From NCBI GenBank assembly GCA_016839515.1, contig JAEOUE010000121.1, positions 1-58,542 on the forward strand: a stretch of 58,542 nt of DNA, in the 5' to 3' direction. A model generated the notes under the pieces. The model was not told where the DNA came from. It did no database searches and saw only the letters and a list, made by a program, of their open reading frames with translations. The position numbers and the translations under genes are program-made. The DNA is from Candidatus Hodarchaeum mangrovi. GTDB taxonomy: Archaea; Asgardarchaeota; Heimdallarchaeia; Hodarchaeales; Hodarchaeaceae. This document shows, piece after piece, positions 8,312 through 52,515 of the stretch (its first letter is position 1; each line of letters opens with the position of its first letter).

Positions 8312-8539
8312 ATTCAAAATATCTTTAGAATATTTCTTTCTAGGGAAAATAAAAAATCTAATAATCTATTATGGAGCTTAAAAGAATTAGGAAGGACTTT
8401 TTATCATTTATACTTGCTGCCAAACAACTTAAATGTTCAATTTCGAAAGAGAATTAAAGAACCTTTAAATTAGTTTATTCATCAAAACCAGAAGGAAGCG
8501 AAAAGAATTAGCTATAAAGCTGGATCCGGTGTCCAACTA

Positions 8540-9088
8540 ATGAAACAAAAATTAGTACTTAAATTAGTCCTCCTAGGTGATCCTGGTGTGGGAAAAACAA
8601 GTTTAATTAGTCAGTTTGTACACTCACGGTTTAGACATTCGTATCAATTGACTGTGGGTCTTGATATTTCTTCAAAACAAGTCAAACTTAAAGATGGAAG
8701 AACTGTTACCCTCTCTATAAATGATATAGGAGGACAAGCAAGATTTGCTGCTATTCGACATATGTTTTTTAAAGGTGCTCATTTAGCTATGTTTGTTTAT
8801 GATGTCACCCGTTCTGAGACTCTAAGCAATATCAAAAGTCCTTGGTATAGTGAATTAATGGAATTTTGCTCACAACCTGATACTACTAAATCTGCAATCA
8901 AAACTATACTCGTTGGAAATAAAGCTGACCTAGAAGATTATCGTATGATTGAAGAAGATGAGGGGGAAGCTTTAGCAAAAGAAATTCAAGCTATAGATCA
9001 TATTTCTGCTTCAGCTAAAGAGAATCATCATGTAAACGAGGCATTCCATAAACTAGCACAAAGTTTTTTTGACGAAATCGAACATTAA
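8540..9088 (+). CDS. Rab-like small GTPase (Ras superfamily)
   Basis: G1 GDPGVGKTS, G2 TVGLD, G3 DIGGQ, G4 NKAD, G5 SAK; no C-terminal Cys. Confidence 0.92.
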   Translation: MKQKLVLKLVLLGDPGVGKTSLISQFVHSRFRHSYQLTVGLDISSKQVKLKDGRTVTLSINDIGGQARFAAIRHMFFKGAHLAMFVYDVTRSETLSNIKSPWYSELMEFCSQPDTTKSAIKTILVGNKADLEDYRMIEEDEGEALAKEIQAIDHISASAKENHHVNEAFHKLAQSFFDEIEH

Positions 9089-43288: not shown

Positions 43289-44650
43289 ATGGTTCTGACT
43301 ATGCTTGAAACAATTGTTATTGGCATTGCATTATTTATCATCTTTTATATTATATTTTTTTGGTTTTATTCAACAGTTAAATCTGAAAAAGATTTTGCAA
43401 ACCAGGTTTATTGGTATTTGGTAAGGCGTTATAAAGAAACAACAATTGTAGATTATGGAGGGATTTCAACTGACCCTATAATTCAATGCAGAAATGCAGG
43501 ACCTTTTAATATAATCGAAGTGAAAGTTGTTACTGACAAAAGCAAAAATAAAATTGATCAAGATATAATAATTAGGGGAGAGGTAGATGGAACTAAATAT
43601 CAGAGAGGATCTTATCCTTCTACAAATCTCAATCTACATCTTGCAAGTAGTTATGTTGGTTATACAAATAAAATCCCATTAGGAGCCGGTATGGAGGATT
43701 TTGATCAGAGGTTCCTCATCTTATCCGATGATCATATTTTCAACAGTCAATTACTTTATAAAACTCATTTGAGTGATTTAATGATGAAAACATTTGATTT
43801 AGAGGGTTATAGTATCAGATGGGAATTAGATGGATCCCCAACAATACAAATTCGGATGGAAACTATGAGCTCGAATAGTTTTATGCAAGCTTTTAACATT
43901 TTACTCGGAACTGTAGGATTATTAACTGAAAAAGGGTTTATTTCTAGACTAGATTCAGGTATCCAATTAAAAGAGGTTAAAATTCCCACCTCAAAAGAAT
44001 TACCTGTATATGAGGATAAAAAAATTGTTATTCCATCAGCAAAATGGGATGTATCGGATGAAAAACAAACAAAATATTCCCAAACTAGTATAGAAAGGCA
44101 ATTGATTACCAATTCTATACCTTCTCATAATGAATCTCAGAGTTATACCGTTAATAATAAGTTAAGCGAATCTTTATCGATAGAAAAAACGCATAGAGAA
44201 TTATTTAACTCTCTTAAATATCAAGCAAAGGATATTATCTATGAAGAAAATCAAGTAAGAGTATTAGGATATTCAAGTACGGTTAAGGAATTTATTTTCA
44301 CCTTTCCAGGATTTGATACAATTCAGATAAATGCATTATCAAATCGACCTCCTACTCAATCATTCGAATTAAAGATTGATTTAAATCAACGTCAAAAAAG
44401 CAGGAACTGGAGTGATCCATGGTCTGGTATAGAAATTAAAGGATCTCCAGAGCTTCTTGAAAAACTTCGGATACGATCAAGTATAGCAAATCGAATACAA
44501 GAGTTTGAAAAGCTTTCCATTAAAGTCCAAGGATTGGCACATCAAAATGTTGATTTTGTATTAACTATTCCACGTAATAAAGAAGGAGTAAACGGTGGGT
44601 ACTCTATTCTAAAGGATCTTATTTGGTTTATAGAAATGAGTTCCTTTTAA
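43289..44650 (+). CDS. Single-pass membrane protein with two similar soluble alpha/beta domains
   Basis: N-terminal TM; two domains separated by a low-complexity linker, each ending in a similar helix. Confidence 0.65.
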   Translation: MVLTMLETIVIGIALFIIFYIIFFWFYSTVKSEKDFANQVYWYLVRRYKETTIVDYGGISTDPIIQCRNAGPFNIIEVKVVTDKSKNKIDQDIIIRGEVDGTKYQRGSYPSTNLNLHLASSYVGYTNKIPLGAGMEDFDQRFLILSDDHIFNSQLLYKTHLSDLMMKTFDLEGYSIRWELDGSPTIQIRMETMSSNSFMQAFNILLGTVGLLTEKGFISRLDSGIQLKEVKIPTSKELPVYEDKKIVIPSAKWDVSDEKQTKYSQTSIERQLITNSIPSHNESQSYTVNNKLSESLSIEKTHRELFNSLKYQAKDIIYEENQVRVLGYSSTVKEFIFTFPGFDTIQINALSNRPPTQSFELKIDLNQRQKSRNWSDPWSGIEIKGSPELLEKLRIRSSIANRIQEFEKLSIKVQGLAHQNVDFVLTIPRNKEGVNGGYSILKDLIWFIEMSSF

Positions 44651-44828: not shown

Positions 44829-46253
44829 TTGAACAATAATATAACAGTGAGAGATACAGGATCTTTACGTTATACTTTACTCATTGGATTAGGTTTCATG
44901 ACTACTGGATTAAGTTGGAGCATGTATAATACTTATGTACCATATATGTTAGAGACAACTTGGTTTCTAAAAGGTCAAACTTACTTCCTCCTCCCAGCTC
45001 TTCTTATTATTGGCTTTATTATGACTTTAGACAATATAGCAGCATGGATTATTCAGCCTTGGATAGGAGCAAGAAGTGATAATACATGGTATCCTCGTTG
45101 GGGTCGTAGAATGCCCTATTTATTAGTTGGTATCCCTATTTCTGCGTTAGCTTTTATATTAATCCCAATATTCTGGTGGTTTTTTCCAGGAGAAGAATTT
45201 TCTCTAGTATTGGGCTCACTACTTCCACTTTTCCTATTCATGATCGTGATTAATATTTTTAATATCTTTATGGCATTTTATCGATCTCCTGTTGTTGCTT
45301 TAATGCCTGATTTAATCCCCCCGAGAGATCGAACTAAAGCCAATGGAGCAATAAATTTGATGGGAGGATTGGGATCAGTAATTGCTTTTTTTGGTGGTCG
45401 TATTATTGTTGGAATTGGTCGTTCAATTGGTGATCCACATGGAACAAATCAGCTTCTAGGAGATCAAGTTGGGTTTTCTTTTGGATTCTTTGTAACAGCA
45501 ATAATTATGGTATTAGCTTTGATCCTCTTACGACTGACAATTCATGAACCGAAAACTCCTTTTGAACATGAAATTAAGGAAGAAGTGAAACTAGCCAAGG
45601 CCTTTAATGAGGTTTTTTCTTCACAAGATAAATCTGGTGTTTTTATTCTGCTTGCTATTTTCCTTTGGTTCACAGGATATCAAGCAATGGAAACATTTTT
45701 CTCTTTGTATGGTGTTTATACTTTAGGGTTTGAAAATGTTGAAGATGTAGCGTTCTATTTAAACGCATTTGCTATTCCTTTTTTATTGGCTGCAGTACCA
45801 GCTGGTTTAATTGCCAATCGTTTCGGTAGAGCCAATACAATTAAAGTTGGATTGATTGGAATCCTTTTAGCTTTATCTCCTATCGCTTTACTTCCAATGA
45901 GGGATATTGCACTAACTAATCAAAATTCTGCCCTTTTTATCATAATCATTTGTCTAGCTATTGGAGGTACTAGCTGGGCTTTAGTAAATATCAATTCTAT
46001 TGTAATAGTTTGGGAAATAGGTGGTGAAAAGCGAGGTGCATACACAGGACTTTATTATTTCTTCTCAATGATGGCAGCTGTACTTGGACCGCCTCTTGTT
46101 GGAATGTTATTGACTATCACGAATAGTTTAATAGGCGGACCTGGTCGTGAAATGGATAATTTGTTTCTAGTTTCAATAATATTCCTGTTCCTTGCATTTC
46201 TAGCCATGTTTAAAGTGAAAGCTGGTGAACTTGGACAACAATTAAAGAAATAG
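44829..46253 (+). CDS. MFS transporter (sugar/GPH-SLC45-like)
   Basis: IGARSDNT...GRRMPY, ALMPDL, about 12 TMs. Confidence 0.9.
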   Translation: MNNNITVRDTGSLRYTLLIGLGFMTTGLSWSMYNTYVPYMLETTWFLKGQTYFLLPALLIIGFIMTLDNIAAWIIQPWIGARSDNTWYPRWGRRMPYLLVGIPISALAFILIPIFWWFFPGEEFSLVLGSLLPLFLFMIVINIFNIFMAFYRSPVVALMPDLIPPRDRTKANGAINLMGGLGSVIAFFGGRIIVGIGRSIGDPHGTNQLLGDQVGFSFGFFVTAIIMVLALILLRLTIHEPKTPFEHEIKEEVKLAKAFNEVFSSQDKSGVFILLAIFLWFTGYQAMETFFSLYGVYTLGFENVEDVAFYLNAFAIPFLLAAVPAGLIANRFGRANTIKVGLIGILLALSPIALLPMRDIALTNQNSALFIIIICLAIGGTSWALVNINSIVIVWEIGGEKRGAYTGLYYFFSMMAAVLGPPLVGMLLTITNSLIGGPGREMDNLFLVSIIFLFLAFLAMFKVKAGELGQQLKK

Positions 46254-46640: not shown

Positions 46641-47252
46641 TTGACAGTTTTAAAAATTGTTCTCATTGGTGATGGAGGCGTAGGAAAGACGGCCATTCGG
46701 GAAAGATATCTTGGAAAGGGATTCAAAGCACAATATCTTCTTACTATCGGCGCAGATTTTGCAATGCGTGATGATCAAGCGAGTGGTATGCCAATTAGAT
46801 ATCAAATTTGGGACTTGGCAGGTCAACAGCGGTTTGATGCCGTACGTGAAGTATATTACAAGGGATGTGTTGGAGCGTTATTAGTTTATGATGTAACACG
46901 CCCTGATTCATATTTTAATACCCCAAAATGGATTAATGAGCTATGGACCAATAATGGTCGTGGAAGAGTACCTCTTGTAGTTGTTGCAAATAAGATAGAC
47001 ATGCGTGAACTATCTGATGATACTGTTTCAGAAGAACAAGGAAGAATTTTTACAGATCGATTAAGCAAACTTACTAAGCCTGAAGGATTTATCTGTAACT
47101 ACATTGAAACATCTGCCAAAACAGGAGTGAATATTCAAAAGGCATTTACTTTACTTGGGGATAACATCATGAAATTTGTGGATAATCAAAGAAAAACTAG
47201 CCGTGCTACAAGTAGATTATCTACCACTTCTCCACAACAACGTCAAATCTAA
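46641..47252 (+). CDS. Rab-like small GTPase with basic Ser/Thr-rich tail
   Basis: GDGGVGKT, TIGADF, WDLAGQQRF, YYKG, NKID, ETSAKTG; TTG start after GAGG. Confidence 0.95.
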   Translation: MTVLKIVLIGDGGVGKTAIRERYLGKGFKAQYLLTIGADFAMRDDQASGMPIRYQIWDLAGQQRFDAVREVYYKGCVGALLVYDVTRPDSYFNTPKWINELWTNNGRGRVPLVVVANKIDMRELSDDTVSEEQGRIFTDRLSKLTKPEGFICNYIETSAKTGVNIQKAFTLLGDNIMKFVDNQRKTSRATSRLSTTSPQQRQI

Positions 47253-47267
47253 TATTTCAGTTTAATT

Positions 47268-47975
47268 TTAGAACAAAGATCGGAAAAATATTCTAATTTG
47301 TTTCATCCCAATTTTTGATTCTCCAAATTTTCTAACATTAAATACATAAGAGAATTCACCTATTGGTGTGTCTCCAGGAAGAACTTTTAATAGGTCGAAA
47401 AGCAATTTATATCCTCTAGGGGAGATAGTCTGAGGATGATTATTTATTAAATTACTAATGAATAATGTTTCTCCTCCAAAATAACCACTCATTATATCTC
47501 TCGGTCGTTGACGTCGCCTGAAAAATAGAGAAAGTTTTCCAAGTGTTGTAGCTCCCCAAGATATTATTTTTCGTTTCAAACTCCATCCTTCAACGCTAGA
47601 CCGAGTTCCAATAACAAGTTTGTTTCCTGCTATTAATAATTTAAACCCTTCAGCGATTTTATCTGGTGGATGCTGAAAATCACAATCAAGAATAAAAAAG
47701 TATTTTGTTTTTACCTCTTTTAAAGCATCAACCACCGAAATCGTTAAACCCTTGATTAGTTTATCTTTTCGATTAAGTAAATAAATGGATGGATTTTTTC
47801 TATTCCATTCAGCTACAATCTCTACAGTTCCATCCGTTGACCCGTCATCAGCTACTATGATCGATATTGGAGGGTAAAATTTAAGCAATTGCTCTATTAA
47901 TTTTCCAATATTACTACTTTCATTTAATGTTGGTGTGATAACTGTTAATTCGGATAATGAAGATAAGTTATTCAT
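47268..47975 (-). CDS. Dolichol-phosphate mannosyltransferase-like GT2
   Basis: PTLNE, DDGSTDGT, DCDFQHPP, DIMSGYF, GYKLL, R..GESK. Confidence 0.88.
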   Translation of the reverse strand: MNNLSSLSELTVITPTLNESSNIGKLIEQLLKFYPPISIIVADDGSTDGTVEIVAEWNRKNPSIYLLNRKDKLIKGLTISVVDALKEVKTKYFFILDCDFQHPPDKIAEGFKLLIAGNKLVIGTRSSVEGWSLKRKIISWGATTLGKLSLFFRRRQRPRDIMSGYFGGETLFISNLINNHPQTISPRGYKLLFDLLKVLPGDTPIGEFSYVFNVRKFGESKIGMKQIRIFFRSLF

Positions 47976-48099
47976 AAATAAGAATAATAAAATTGTTATA
48001 TTTAGACCTTTTTACAATATCTCATAAATAGCATTCTTTAAGAGTTAGATCCATATTTTTTAGCTAAATAATTTTTAGTTTTGGTTTTTGGGATTTTTT

Positions 48100-48525
48100 A
48101 TGAGTTTGAAAGAACTTCTAGAGAAGTTTGCCACAGGATTTTCTGTAAAAGGAATTTATCTTCAAACATCTCAAGAATTAATACCAATTGTTCAGGAATC
48201 ATCAGAACTTTTATTAATGCTTAAAAGACACCCGAATTTACCTGACGGTATTATAAATCTTTTATATGAAGAACAAGAAATTGGAACTCTTGTAGAAACT
48301 CTTGAAAATGGCATTAAACTCATAATATTAACAGATTTTAAGCATATTCAAGAAGTTTCAGCAAATTGGAAACGTTTTACCCCAATAATTAAAAAACAAA
48401 TGGATATTGAGCAGTTCTTGAACCAAGAAAGTGTTGAAACACGTTTAATCAATCGTTTAGAAGATATTAGGATATCGATTGAGAAATCCATAAGCATACT
48501 CAAGGAGAAAATTAATCATGGCTGA
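48100..48525 (+). CDS. Putative divergent Roadblock/LC7 (LAMTOR/MglB-like) domain protein with C-terminal helix
   Basis: Apparent alpha-beta-beta-alpha-beta-beta-beta-alpha pattern (VKGIYLQT, LIPIV, GTLVETL, KLIILTD). ATG at 48100 (ORF track 48088). Fold call is inference. Confidence 0.5.
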   Translation: MSLKELLEKFATGFSVKGIYLQTSQELIPIVQESSELLLMLKRHPNLPDGIINLLYEEQEIGTLVETLENGIKLIILTDFKHIQEVSANWKRFTPIIKKQMDIEQFLNQESVETRLINRLEDIRISIEKSISILKEKINHG

Positions 48526-49861
48526 AATACCACCAGCAGCAGCAGAAGAAGAAGAAGAATTAAAACTAGCTAAACGTATATTTGACTTAAATAAGATAAT
48601 TGAAGAGAATTCTTCCTTATTAATGAATTTAAAAGCAGAGCTATCAGAAATCAGAACTGATCATCAAAAATGGATTAAAAAAATTGAAGATTTGGATGTA
48701 AGACTGGATTCAAAGTTTTCTGAAATAACAAATGAATTTAATGAAATAAATAACAATTACTCTATTGAAACTAGAAGAATTGAAGAGAAAATCAATACAA
48801 AAGTTCTAGAACTAGAACCAAAAATCCAAGAACTTTCTGAAAAAGCATCAAATAATTATTCGGAAATTTCTGAAAGGATTACAGCAATTCAAGAAGAGTT
48901 AAATAAAAAAGTAACTTCCGATACTTTTGAAGACATAAAAAATGGATTTTCAGAAAGAATAAATGATCTAAATCAAAAAATTGAAGCCTTAGAGAACAAT
49001 CTAAACTTTAAATACAATACTATAGAAACTGTAATAGGGGAAAAAGAACAAAAAATAATATCATCCTATGATGAGAAATTCCTTGGGATTCGGAAGGATT
49101 TTGATGAAGAAAATTCAAAAATCTCAAATGAATTGAATTTGGTCTCTGAAACACTGCAGATGTTGGTTGAATCAGTTCAAAATATCAATAAAGTAAATGA
49201 AAATCATAATGATGTTCTGGATTCATATCAATCTGCATTTTCTGATCTTAAAGATACTATTAAGGAAATCATTAGTATTTCAAAAGAAGATCAAAAGGAA
49301 CTTTTTGATAGTTTTTCTACTATCATGGAGAGTAATAATGAAGATATAAGAACTGAAATAACAGTTACGACACAAACACTTCTAGATAGTGATAAAAATA
49401 TTATCGACAAATCTAAAGAACTTTTTATGCAGAAAAAATCAGGTGATGAACTTAAACAAACAATAATTGAATTAGCAGGAGAAATACGGTCAGAATCTCA
49501 AAAAACTCGTGATGATCTCTTGAAAGGTCTTCAATCTAATGTCGAGGAGTATGAAAAAGTGATTACAGAACAAAATATAAACATCAAATCCTTTCAAGAG
49601 GAATTAGAGCTATTCAAAAAAGAAATACATGCAATAATTGATCGAAAGGTAAATGAAAAATATGAAGTTGTTTACAAGCTTCTAGGAAGAGTATTAACAC
49701 TCTCTGAAGAGCATGCACTTCTATTAAAAGCGTCAGAGATAAAATTACCTTTAAAATCGAAAAGATTACCAGAAATCACTACTAACCTTTCACAAAGCGA
49801 AGATGAAGCTTCCTCTTCTGACTCCTTAGAGGATGAGGATGAAAAAGAAAAAGGAATATAA
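48518..49861 (+). CDS. Long coiled-coil/helical-repeat protein with acidic tail
   Basis: E/K/I/L-rich amphipathic helices throughout; 8-bp overlap with the upstream ORF. Confidence 0.75.
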   Translation: MAEIPPAAAEEEEELKLAKRIFDLNKIIEENSSLLMNLKAELSEIRTDHQKWIKKIEDLDVRLDSKFSEITNEFNEINNNYSIETRRIEEKINTKVLELEPKIQELSEKASNNYSEISERITAIQEELNKKVTSDTFEDIKNGFSERINDLNQKIEALENNLNFKYNTIETVIGEKEQKIISSYDEKFLGIRKDFDEENSKISNELNLVSETLQMLVESVQNINKVNENHNDVLDSYQSAFSDLKDTIKEIISISKEDQKELFDSFSTIMESNNEDIRTEITVTTQTLLDSDKNIIDKSKELFMQKKSGDELKQTIIELAGEIRSESQKTRDDLLKGLQSNVEEYEKVITEQNINIKSFQEELELFKKEIHAIIDRKVNEKYEVVYKLLGRVLTLSEEHALLLKASEIKLPLKSKRLPEITTNLSQSEDEASSSDSLEDEDEKEKGI

Positions 49862-49913
49862 AGAAGGAATAGTATGTAACGTTATTTGAGACAAACGCGA
49901 AGGGAAATTAATA

Positions 49914-50429
49914 TTGTCATTAGATAGCCCATTAAAAATTGTTATTGCAGGAGAAAAGCATGTGGGAAAGTCTTCTCTTGTACATAGGTTTATTTATGAA
50001 CAATTTCCCTTAAAAGGGCTCTATTCCACGGTAGGATTCGATTTTACGCTAAAGACTATCATTCTTGATAACAATACAAATGTAGTTATTCATATTTATG
50101 ATTTTGGAGGAGAACCACGATTTAGGATGATTTTTCCTCAATATGCTTCAGATTGTGATGGACTTATTCTAGCTTTTGATCCAACGCGAGAAGAGACATT
50201 TAATGCTTTGAATGAATGGATTGAAGTTTACGGTCGTAAAGAGGAGACTATTAATTTCTTAATATCAACAAAAGCTGATTTAGGAATTTCTACCTCCCCA
50301 TTAAAAATAAATGACTTCAGAAACAAGCATAATATTTCAAGGTACTTTCAAACAAGTGCTGTGACGGGTGAGAATACGCAAGAATTATTTAAAATAATAG
50401 CAGGAGAAATAATTCAAAAGAAATTATAA
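49914..50429 (+). CDS. Rab-like small GTPase, atypical
   Basis: GEKHVGKSS, TVGFDF, DFGGE (Q to E), TKAD (N to T), TSA. Confidence 0.88.
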   Translation: MSLDSPLKIVIAGEKHVGKSSLVHRFIYEQFPLKGLYSTVGFDFTLKTIILDNNTNVVIHIYDFGGEPRFRMIFPQYASDCDGLILAFDPTREETFNALNEWIEVYGRKEETINFLISTKADLGISTSPLKINDFRNKHNISRYFQTSAVTGENTQELFKIIAGEIIQKKL

Positions 50430-50442
50430 AAACTAAGTTATC

Positions 50443-51021
50443 ATGGGACAGGTTTTTCGAATGGGTGAATCAAAGTTCTTTGTAGACTCGAATATTCTAA
50501 CTGTAAAAGTCATTGTAGCTGGACCTGGAGGGGTAGGTAAAACAACATTACTAAAACGCTATGAAACAAATAATTACATCCCTGCAATTTCAACAATAGG
50601 GATTAACTTCCTAGTAAGAGATATTGAAGTAGGGGATTCAATTTTACGTATAGCTTATTGGGATTATGCAGGAGAGGATAGATTCAAAATATTGTTTCCA
50701 GGTTATTGTCAAGGTTCATCGGGTGCAATATTAGCATTTGATACCTCTCGAATGCAAACTTTATCAGAACTCCCTGAATGGTTAAAAGTGATCCGAACAC
50801 ATAATGATCCAGAAATCCCTATAATCCTGCTAGGAAATAAGATCGATGCAATTTCCGAGGAAAAAAGGGATTTAGCTAGAGAATCTGCAAATATCTTTGC
50901 TAAAGAATTTCAATTATCAGGATATTATTTCTGTTCTGCAAAAGAAGGAGATGGTATTGAAGCTCCCTTCTCTCACCTAGGTATATTAATAAGTGAAAGA
51001 AATAAAAAGAGAAGGAAATAA
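50443..51021 (+). CDS. Rab-like small GTPase with polybasic C-terminus
   Basis: GPGGVGKTT, TIGINF, WDYAGE (Q to E), NKID, CSAK; ends NKKRRK. Confidence 0.9.
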   Translation: MGQVFRMGESKFFVDSNILTVKVIVAGPGGVGKTTLLKRYETNNYIPAISTIGINFLVRDIEVGDSILRIAYWDYAGEDRFKILFPGYCQGSSGAILAFDTSRMQTLSELPEWLKVIRTHNDPEIPIILLGNKIDAISEEKRDLARESANIFAKEFQLSGYYFCSAKEGDGIEAPFSHLGILISERNKKRRK

Positions 51022-51030
51022 TTTCTCTTT

Positions 51031-52515
51031 TTATAATATTGAATCCACAAAGCTATCGATCTTTTTCTCAAAGAAACCTTTTGTCGCTAGATAACGATGA
51101 TAGAACTTTTGATATTCCTCCTTCATCATCTTCTCATAAGAAATTAAGAATAACAATCCTGTCGCAATAAATGAGGAGATGGTTGCTAATAAAAATAGAA
51201 TAGCGGTTGCAGAATATTCCCATGAGCTAAACGTTGAAATTATCATTCCACCTAGAATAGAAACTATTGGTTGAGTCCAAGTAGATCCAAATTTATTTAT
51301 TCCCATGAATTGAGCCTCTTTCCCCTCTGGTACTAAATCTGCTGGTAAAGAGACTCTTACCGATTCAATAAAGACAGCTCCTAGCCCTCCAAGAGCTGCA
51401 ATGGGGATTAAAAAACCATAATAATCGCCAATCTCCATTCCACTCATTAAAAGAGCAAAAAAAGCATATATTATTGATCCAACAATAGCAGTCCTTACTT
51501 TTCCAAATTTCTGAATAAAAAAGCCAGCAGGAATCGCCATAATAACAGAGACAATGCCTGTTACCATTAACACTGCAGGTACTTCTTCAGGTAAGATTCC
51601 CATGGGAGTTGTTAAATGGATCACCAAATAAATAGCAATAATTTCACTTGAGAATCCCCAAAACGATTGTACAAAAAACATTTTCCCAAAATCGGATCCA
51701 GAAATATTCAAAAGATAATTGGGAGTTTGAAGAATATCTGTAACGGGGGAATCAATAGGAGGAAAAGGAGGATTTGCTTTTTCGACTAGAAAGAAGATTA
51801 AGATCCCAACAACAGTAATAATAAGTGCTGGAAATAAAAAAAACCCTACTTCAATCAAGATACTTAGACTAAACAACGTTGCAAGTTCTAAAAGAAAATT
51901 CGAAATAGGGGAAAAAAATAGCAGACCAATCATACTACCTAGTGTAGTAAAACCAGCTAATATTAAACCAACCCATCCTCGCTGTTCCTTCGTAAATAAT
52001 TCAGAAAGTAATGCCCCATAAGGAGAAGAAGCCAATCCTAAACCAACATAAATTAAGAAAAAACAAACTGGGAAGAGTACAACCATCAACTCACCAGGGG
52101 CTCCACCAGCAAAAATTGGAGTCATAATTAGCATAAATCCAGCTATCAAACATCCACTTAAAATATAAGGAGCTCGTGCCCCATATTTTGATCGATAGTC
52201 GTCTGAAAAGGCCCCACCTATAATAACAGTTATAAGATAAGCAATAGAACCAGCAGCAACTGAAAATGAGAAAATTGTATCAGCAGTTTCATTTGTAATA
52301 GTGTGTTCAAGATCAACTAAATATCCATGCAAGTAAGAGAGATTAAAATGAGTAATAATGAAATTTACAATAATTGCATTTGCCATAGCAAAAAGTCCAA
52401 GTGCGATAATATTTCGATATTTTTGTACTGCTTCTCGTTCCTCTCGCAGCTCTCTTGTTGTTAAAAATTTAAATTTTCCTCTTATTTTTTGCCTATGTTC
52501 TGATCCAGTTGCCAA
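51031..52515 (-). CDS. MFS transporter
   Basis: GAFSDDYRSKYGARAPY, LLSELF, ADLVPEG, about 12 TMs. Confidence 0.88.
   Translation of the reverse strand: MATGSEHRQKIRGKFKFLTTRELREEREAVQKYRNIIALGLFAMANAIIVNFIITHFNLSYLHGYLVDLEHTITNETADTIFSFSVAAGSIAYLITVIIGGAFSDDYRSKYGARAPYILSGCLIAGFMLIMTPIFAGGAPGELMVVLFPVCFFLIYVGLGLASSPYGALLSELFTKEQRGWVGLILAGFTTLGSMIGLLFFSPISNFLLELATLFSLSILIEVGFFLFPALIITVVGILIFFLVEKANPPFPPIDSPVTDILQTPNYLLNISGSDFGKMFFVQSFWGFSSEIIAIYLVIHLTTPMGILPEEVPAVLMVTGIVSVIMAIPAGFFIQKFGKVRTAIVGSIIYAFFALLMSGMEIGDYYGFLIPIAALGGLGAVFIESVRVSLPADLVPEGKEAQFMGINKFGSTWTQPIVSILGGMIISTFSSWEYSATAILFLLATISSFIATGLLFLISYEKMMKEEYQKFYHRYLATKGFFEKKIDSFVDSIL

Follow-up and report, generated by a model that had tools for sequence, protein, structure and literature searches.

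Four co-oriented genes of the archaeon Candidatus Hodarchaeum mangrovi encode a small protein with a predicted Roadblock-type fold (RBL), an elongated helical rod protein (CC) and two Rab-like small GTPases (G1 and G2) that both carry Glu at the position of the catalytic Gln (Glu-type GTPases hereafter). The cassette lies at positions 48100-51021 of contig JAEOUE010000121.1 (GenBank assembly GCA_016839515.1); the whole analyzed stretch of that contig, 58,542 nucleotides on the forward strand, is referred to as the window. We consider the chances even that the cassette is a four-protein GTPase module specific to the order Hodarchaeales, a lineage-specific version of the Roadblock-plus-small-GTPase arrangement. 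What is established here comprises the genes, their motifs and predicted folds, their conservation, their phyletic range and their linkage.

Organization and linkage of the four genes

By open reading frame (ORF) call, RBL (48100-48525, + strand) encodes 141 amino acids (aa) counted from its ATG, CC (48518-49861, +) a 447-aa all-helical rod protein, G1 (49914-50429, +) a 171-aa Rab-like small GTPase, and G2 (50443-51021, +) a 192-aa Rab-like small GTPase. An alternative TTG start at 48088 would extend RBL to 145 aa, and the RBL homologues have 141-146 aa. RBL and CC overlap by 8 bp, CC and G1 are separated by a 52-bp spacer (49862-49913, +), and G1 and G2 by 13 bp, which confirms the layout reported by a first-pass annotation of this DNA made from the letters alone. 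No T-run was found in the sequence of the window's CC-G1 spacer, and a GTGA-containing purine-rich block is conserved 8-12 nt 5' of the G1 start in ten aligned orthologue spacers, where it looks like a likely ribosome-binding site of an internal cistron; together, the two features fit a single transcript. One of two metatranscriptome runs yielded a single 257-nt contig at 49643-49899 that crosses the CC stop codon, and the other run gave no match to the locus. This contig is weak evidence that does not establish an operon transcript, and it may stem from DNA carry-over.

We compared 20 loci around RBL matches. Within the genus, the order RBL-CC-G1-G2 is kept in all 17 loci that are long enough, and two further loci end inside CC; the RBL-CC overlap is 4-32 bp in 16 of 16 measured loci, and the orthologue spacings are 74-188 bp for CC-G1 and 7-35 bp for G1-G2. 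The MFS gene downstream of G2 was found at 10 of these 17 loci and not at the others. The flanks differ in a second family, and the genomes of that family are the informative cases.

Two second-family genomes, G022 and G023, contributed such loci. In G022, an RBL-like gene (27% identity) is directly followed by the gene of a 231-aa protein made up of the C-terminal domain of CC alone. A G2-like GTPase gene (DYAGE) lies 2.5 kb downstream of this RBL-CC pair behind three intervening genes, and a G1-like gene (FDFGGE, STKHD) lies on a separate contig, directly upstream of the orthologue of the Rab-like gene that precedes the cassette in the window. In G023, the end of RBL overlaps by 13 bp with the gene of a 224-aa short form of CC, which matches the CC domain over its signature (hhalign E 6.3e-5), and a G1-like GTPase gene (FDFGGE, STKND) follows 132 bp downstream in the same order; the G2-like gene (DYAGE) of this genome was found on a 2.8-kb contig. 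The place of G2 at the G023 locus (L094, 1632-2912, - strand) is taken by a gene convergent with the G1-like gene, which encodes a 426-aa translational-type GTPase (AGNVDAGKST, EF-Tu/GTPBP-like).

In three genera with differing flanks, RBL and CC stay paired, and the gene of a Glu-type GTPase is found no more than 3 kb away. The RBL and GTPase genes are co-stranded and conserved in order with CC between them, and the linkage is seen in three genera of one order only. The gene-order check across Asgard genomes to which the first-pass annotation had tied its proposal thus came out positive, both within the genus and, for the first two genes and a cognate Glu-type GTPase, in the second family.

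The GTPases G1 and G2

Both proteins belong by profile to the Pfam family Ras (PF00071, cut-off 21.6 bits), G1 with 95.5 bits (E 3.3e-27) and G2 with 114 bits (E 6.8e-33), and their nearest solved relatives are Rab18 and Rab6 for G1 and Rab18, Rab12 and Rab11 for G2. G1 contains the P-loop GEKHVGKS, the switch I T39 and the motifs DFGGE (G3), TKAD (G4) and SAV (G5), while G2 contains the P-loop GPGGVGKT and the motifs DYAGE (G3), NKID (G4) and SAK (G5), with an N-terminal extension of about 18 aa and a polybasic C-terminus ending in ERNKKRRK. The Glu of DFGGE and DYAGE aligns with the catalytic Gln of Rab18 DTAGQ and is invariant in 18 of 18 G1 and 19 of 19 G2 sequences; the P-loop, the switch I Thr, the G3 Asp, G4 and G5 are also invariant in the orthologues of G1 (17-18 sequences) and G2. 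The motifs and the Rab18 alignment therefore bear out the earlier description of two Rab-like GTPases with Glu for the switch-II Gln, TKAD in the first and an NKKRRK end in the second.

To place this substitution in its genome, we ran a hidden Markov model (HMM) of G1, G2 and the upstream Rab-like GTPase against all 4,687 stop-to-stop ORFs of 90 aa or more in the window's genome. Among the 49 small-GTPase-like ORFs, the column of the catalytic residue holds Gln in 40 and Glu in four; besides G1 and G2, the four comprise a Ras-like gene from a different contig and one alignment that is doubtful. Because the Glu is invariant in the orthologues and rare in the genome (4/49), it is not a chance feature. 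The Ras-like gene is a third Glu-type GTPase of Ras/Rap-like character (contig C23, 27672-28203, - strand; MDTAGE, G4 SKSD), and a whole-genome search found no ORF matching the RBL or CC-domain profile on that contig.

G1 and G2 have a derived switch II in common, GE-x-RF..FP-x-Y, and are sisters in a FastTree phylogeny of the genome's GTPases (42 domains; SH-like support 0.765), which provides moderate evidence, given the long branches, that they may be old paralogues or tandem duplicates. On contig C106, an ORF from 2800 (+ strand) encodes a 178-aa pseudo-GTPase that has neither P-loop nor DxxG and groups with G1 and G2 in a quick tree (support 0.867), possibly by long-branch attraction.

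The RabF3/F4 signature of the Rab family lies in the switch II-helix 2 region. There, the YYRGA region of Rabs is replaced by FPQYASD in G1 and FPGYCQG in G2. The tails, IIQKKL in G1 and ERNKKRRK in G2, have no C-terminal Cys prenylation motif, the Cys being a Rab feature in the available sections of PMC10933270. Judged by profile and by the G1-G5 motifs, both proteins are Rab-like members of the Ras superfamily that depart from eukaryotic Rabs and from the catalytic Gln. Membership in the Rag/Gtr family was not found with Gtr1_RagA (PF04670), which gave 15.9 and 12 bits (E 0.0091 and 0.14) at a cut-off of 22 bits, and both proteins are single-domain, with no fused C-terminal Roadblock domain; proteins of this build, of 171 and 192 aa, do not support the Rag-type GTPase pair that had been suggested. 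In Ras, the Q61E substitution is described as increasing the intrinsic GTPase activity (PMC2987813 and PMC10515638, in the portions available), so that Glu need not inactivate the switch.

The predicted fold of RBL

RBL matches no Pfam or NCBIfam family; for Roadblock/LC7 (PF03259), there was no hit at E ≤ 1 for RBL and none for any of 16 scanned representatives of its family. The same profile found seven genes above cut-off elsewhere in the window's genome and none at the RBL locus. An AlphaFold2 model of RBL built from a 7-row alignment (mean pLDDT 83.3) consists of a helix (3-13), two strands (16-22 and 27-32), a short helix (35-42), three strands (50-56, 59-67 and 73-79) and a helix (80-100), followed by an extra long C-terminal helix (103-140) beyond the Roadblock core. 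In the Roadblock fold, one helix and two terminal helices enclose a sheet of five strands, and the order of elements in RBL (helix, two strands, helix, three strands, helix) fits this topology. By the scheme in the available sections of PMC10933270, the N-terminal helix 3-13 would make the fold Roadblock-type and not longin-type; the longin subunits of GTPase-activating proteins (GAPs) and nucleotide exchange factors, such as FLCN, NPRL2, SMCR8 and Mon1-Ccz1, have, as far as PMC12290439 was available, a longin topology without an N-terminal helix, and those of the GAPs carry a GP motif and an arginine finger. W90 and R92 (in HWKR) are invariant across the entire RBL family alignment.

The model was aligned by VIA-align with 48,161 chains. 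The best match was the Roadblock C-terminal domain of a Lokiarchaeal RagA-like GTPase (8yl2; Z 10.7, rmsd 2.3 Å over 96 residues), and, judged by title, 23 of the top 25 were Roadblock or longin platform domains with Z of 8.1-10.7. These cover Rag C-terminal domains, LAMTOR/MP1-p14, MglB/MglC, bacterial and Asgard Roadblock/LC7 proteins, Mon1-Ccz1, CPLANE and BLOC-3. Representative scores are Z 9.1 and 8.3 for the Roadblock/LC7 structures 3leq and 3kye, 9.5, 8.9 and 8.5 for the LAMTOR/Rag structures 3cpt, 6u62 and 6ehr, and 8.2-10.2 for Mon1-Ccz1 domains; GAF domains, profilins and adaptin longin domains appear at Z below 8. The designation of the small protein as Roadblock-like in the first-pass annotation thus held for the predicted model and failed at the level of Pfam and NCBIfam profiles. 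RBL lies outside the Roadblock/LC7 family by sequence profile, and its Roadblock likeness, unreadable from the sequence, emerges from the model as a predicted Roadblock-type fold without detectable sequence relatives outside the RBL family.

The rod protein CC

An AlphaFold2 model of CC built from a 20-row alignment (pLDDT 74, pTM 0.23) contains three helices (7-131, 137-302 and 309-406) and a disordered, acidic tail (408-447). In the alignment, a conserved N-terminal helix is followed by a middle of variable length, a strongly conserved C-terminal domain and the tail, which is variable. The C-terminal domain (residues about 219-418; 49172-49771, + strand), with the signature IIDRKVNEKYEVV, is the sole part retained in the second family, whose short forms have 224-231 aa.

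The hydrophobic periodicity of CC has its maximum at 3.57-3.60 in every helix, as it does in 15 of 18 orthologues; for comparison, the arm of an SMC protein that is also encoded in the window has its maximum at 3.51. Tandem repeats of 25 residues, with a self-identity of up to 49%, make up the middle of several orthologues, and 25/7 equals 3.57. Because the period is 3.57-3.60 and not 3.5 and because of the 25-residue repeats, CC is an elongated rod of helices, with a spacer that can expand, and not a canonical heptad coiled coil. The long coiled coil of the first-pass annotation is therefore retained as long predicted helices, without the golgin-like canonical heptads. A Pfam match to Apolipoprotein that stayed below threshold (27.5 bits, cut-off 90) was set aside, like other weak helical matches, as reflecting composition. 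Foldseek found nothing with the CC model, and a search of the ESM Atlas with the C-terminal domain returned no score of 0.9 or more.

Phyletic distribution

The RBL profile detected a single copy in 22 of 24 Hodarchaeales genomes. One of the two negative genomes (G009) has a 100-N assembly gap exactly at the expected site of RBL and CC, and the other (G012) is 74% complete and is missing the G2 orthologue as well. No credible match was found in the 376 other Asgard genomes of a 400-genome phylum sample, in which the only extra matches were two with E of 0.006-0.008 and in-frame stops. An exhaustive HMM search of 1.84 billion protein representatives gave 19 clusters at E ≤ 0.001, two of which are repeat proteins matched spuriously, and no credible eukaryotic relative. 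The closest homologues bear the NCBI names "Candidatus Hodarchaeum mangrovi" and "Hodarchaeales archaeon".

The search also contained a divergent RBL clade (P0020-P0033; 138-149 aa) that keeps the invariant W90 and R92; one of its clusters bears NCBI names of Promethearchaeota and Hermodarchaeota metagenome-assembled genomes (MAGs). A profile of this clade searched against the phylum sample returned the same 22 genomes only, and none of the 400 sampled Asgard genomes contained a member of the clade. The clade is known only from metagenome contigs, which reach 62 kb, with others of 59 and 54 kb. A search of genome contigs with P0027 gave one bacterial match, which is spurious, and nothing was found for P0028 and P0020 in metagenome contigs.

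Strong matches to the CC C-terminal domain are confined to 19 same-genus genomes, that of the window included, and G022; weak matches elsewhere (E 1e-3 to 2e-5) in proteins of 750-1070 aa were read as helical noise. A whole-genome profile search found no second RBL or CC in the window's genome. Three other species of the genus have CC-domain paralogues of 258-349 aa (L088 5261-6310 in G005, L089 3630-4445 in G014 and L090 5608-6384 in G004). The scores of G2 orthologues exceed 330 bits within the genus and are 271 and 213 bits for the second family; generic Asgard Rab-like genes reach 165 bits or less. By these profile searches, RBL, the CC domain and the G2 subfamily appear confined to one order.

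Neighboring genes

Upstream of the cassette, a canonical Rab-like GTPase (46641-47252, + strand; DLAGQ, NKID) is the most conserved gene of the neighborhood, with 81-90% identity across the genus. Its G022 orthologue is the gene directly downstream of the G1-like Glu-type GTPase mentioned above (locus L095, 345-917), and it may be a functional associate of the cassette. Between this gene and RBL lies a GT2 glycosyltransferase gene (47268-47975, - strand; PF00535, E 1.2e-23) that is divergent from RBL and conserved in position in the same-genus loci. Two MFS transporter genes flank the region (44829-46253, +, and 51031-52515, -), the second being the gene of inconstant presence mentioned above, which is convergent with G2 at a distance of 9 bp. 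Farther upstream, a 453-aa ORF (43289-44650, +) has a hydrophobic N-terminal segment and no Pfam match at E ≤ 1, and another small GTPase gene lies at about 8474-9088 (+; NDIGGQ, NKAD).

Discussion

If the four proteins form a module, its working could be pictured as follows. Given the overlap of their genes, RBL and CC are probably coupled in translation and in assembly, and RBL would dock on the CC C-terminal domain through its Roadblock core or its extra C-terminal helix, with the variable repeat region of CC serving as a spacer. G1 and G2 would retain nucleotide binding and bind the RBL/CC platform in a nucleotide-dependent manner, and their basic C-terminal tails may hold them at the membrane without prenylation. 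RBL may act on G1 and G2 as a regulator or adaptor, in the way Roadblock and longin domains act on MglA, Rag and Rab. In the available sections of PMC10933270 and PMC12290439, such domains are described as GAPs, guanine nucleotide exchange factors (GEFs) or scaffolds for these GTPases, and the former presents them as established small-GTPase platforms, Asgard archaea included. A complex prediction with four chains (G1, G2, CC 225-415 and RBL) gave a score of 0.01 and a mark of 0.32; run without control folds, it counts neither way.

Several observations weigh against the four-protein module. The whole neighborhood is syntenic in the genus, the upstream Rab-like and GT2 genes included, so that gene order within the genus is weak evidence, and all of the evidence comes from one order and perhaps from a single evolutionary event. 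The three CC-domain paralogues lie beside divergent CheB-like response-regulator genes, with no RBL or GTPase gene near. As for the fold of RBL, a profile-profile comparison with the genome's own seven Roadblock proteins gave an hhalign probability of 0.09% (not significant), and its central helix has just eight residues (35-42) before a conserved loop, KRHPNL; canonical Roadblock proteins dimerize through the central helix, according to the available sections of PMC10933270, with an edge strand also taking part. A best VIA-align Z of 7-8 is common for unrelated models, and the case for the fold therefore rests on the topology and on the uniform top rows. Foldseek of the RBL model against the PDB returned no row at E ≤ 0.001, and its weak rows mix Roadblock/LAMTOR with Cache/GAF/PAS domains and include outer-arm dynein chains; the structural check of an AlphaFold model of 48100-48525 that the first-pass annotation had in mind thus succeeded with VIA-align and not with Foldseek. 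Finally, every physical contact in the picture above, and the direction of regulation, is inferred.

Two further points of this kind, the wide CC-G1 spacer (52-188 bp) and the detachment of both GTPase genes from RBL-CC in G022, with the G1-like gene on another contig and the G2-like gene behind three genes, also speak for the main rival, in which RBL and CC are a two-protein structural unit unrelated to GTPases. RBL would then be an adaptor that clamps or dimerizes the rod independently of any GTPase, and G1 and G2 would be neighbors by descent only. We regard this as a serious possibility, though an unlikely one. It would account for the fact that only RBL and CC overlap and that only they are adjacent in all three genera, and truncated Roadblock proteins do bind partner helices, as described in the available part of PMC10933270. 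It leaves unexplained why a Glu-type GTPase lies less than 3 kb from RBL-CC in all three genera despite their differing flanks and why the narrow phyletic range is the same for all three families, and it sits poorly with the ribosome-binding-like block before G1 and a spacer without a T-run.

A different doubt concerns the GTPases themselves, which might not be cycling switches but constitutively fast hydrolyzers or nucleotide-locked subunits of a CC assembly, with RBL as an adaptor and not a GAP or GEF. The invariant change of Gln to Glu and the altered switch II/RabF3-4 region (FP-x-Y for YYRGA) in both paralogues are in line with this, as is the altered intrinsic hydrolysis of Ras Q61E in the source portions cited above; the invariance of the P-loop, switch I Thr, G3 Asp, G4 and G5 is what would be expected of GTP binders that are probably hydrolyzers, and we think the idea improbable. 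Still less can be said for the idea that the cassette is homologous to, or the direct precursor of, eukaryotic Ragulator-Rag or golgin/Rab tethering, which we disfavor as very improbable. The best match of RBL is indeed the Lokiarchaeal RagA-like C-terminal domain (Z 10.7), with LAMTOR and Rag C-terminal domains next, and two GTPases with one helical protein recall the parts list of Rag plus Ragulator. However, the GTPases are single-domain and Rab-like with Gtr1_RagA below cut-off, CC is not a heptad coiled coil, and RBL, represented by 19 clusters only, has no credible eukaryotic relative among the 1.84 billion representatives and, like the CC domain, is absent from the 376 other Asgard genomes. 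The earlier proposal of a precursor of eukaryotic tethering or Rag signaling is not sustained by these results.

A bolder form of the four-protein module would be a self-contained machine for membrane positioning or tethering that arose within Hodarchaeales, in which Trp90 and Arg92 of RBL, likened to the arginine finger of longin GAPs, are catalytic or clamping, the Glu-type GTPases are an obligate pair, and the 25-residue repeats make a rod of adjustable length. We give this little credence; if true, the cassette would parallel Rag-Ragulator or coiled-coil/Rab-like assemblies in function, be assembled from separate components and use a catalytic chemistry that has not been described for Rab-type GTPases.

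Among known systems, MglA-MglB of Myxococcus xanthus and Thermus thermophilus, with its prokaryotic relatives, resembles the cassette in combining the gene of a small protein of the Roadblock fold with that of a Ras-superfamily GTPase, and structures of MglB (6hjm, Z 8.6; 3t1r, Z 7.7) and MglC (7cy1, Z 8.4) match RBL in VIA-align. RBL differs in that it is undetected by the Roadblock/LC7 profile, in its short central helix and in its additional helix at the C-terminus, and G1 and G2 are Rab-like and not MglA-like, carry Glu instead of Gln, and are two GTPases with a rod gene between them and the Roadblock-type gene. Ragulator (LAMTOR1-5)-RagA/C and yeast EGO-Gtr also combine a Roadblock-fold platform, a helical scaffold and two GTPases. 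However, Rag GTPases are of the Arf/Rag type and have Roadblock domains of their own, unlike the single-domain, Rab-like G1 and G2; there is one RBL gene in place of four or five Roadblock subunits, and no sequence homology was found. The binding of LC7/Roadblock to a helix of the dynein intermediate chain offers a plausible model for RBL on the helical CC, although no dynein/microtubule system is present here and the RBL-CC contact is suggested by gene overlap and co-conservation only.

The Asgard repertoire of many Rab-like GTPases and of stand-alone or fused Roadblock/longin domains has been described by Tran et al. 2024 (PMC10933270, in the sections available), and solved Asgard Roadblock structures match RBL (9jue, Z 8.4; 8yqk, Z 8.4; 9jq8, Z 7.9; 7f8m, Z 7.2). 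Against this background, the RBL family is an orphan by sequence, is limited to a single order and is coupled to a rod and two Glu-switch GTPases. No description of the cassette was found in the literature searched, which left out supplementary tables, where it may be listed. Probably, then, it is this RBL-CC-G1-G2 family that is new, the Roadblock-plus-GTPase theme being already known.

The order Hodarchaeales has been proposed to be closely related to eukaryotes. The cassette says little directly about eukaryote origins; its family is limited to one lineage, and no eukaryotic descendants of it are detectable. Its interest lies within the Asgard archaea, which have dozens of small GTPases and many Roadblock/longin proteins whose regulator-GTPase pairing is rarely clear. 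Here, one Roadblock-fold protein, one scaffold and two GTPases make a candidate matched set, and the conserved change of Gln to Glu poses the question of whether these are self-activating GTPases or GTPases served by a different kind of GAP.

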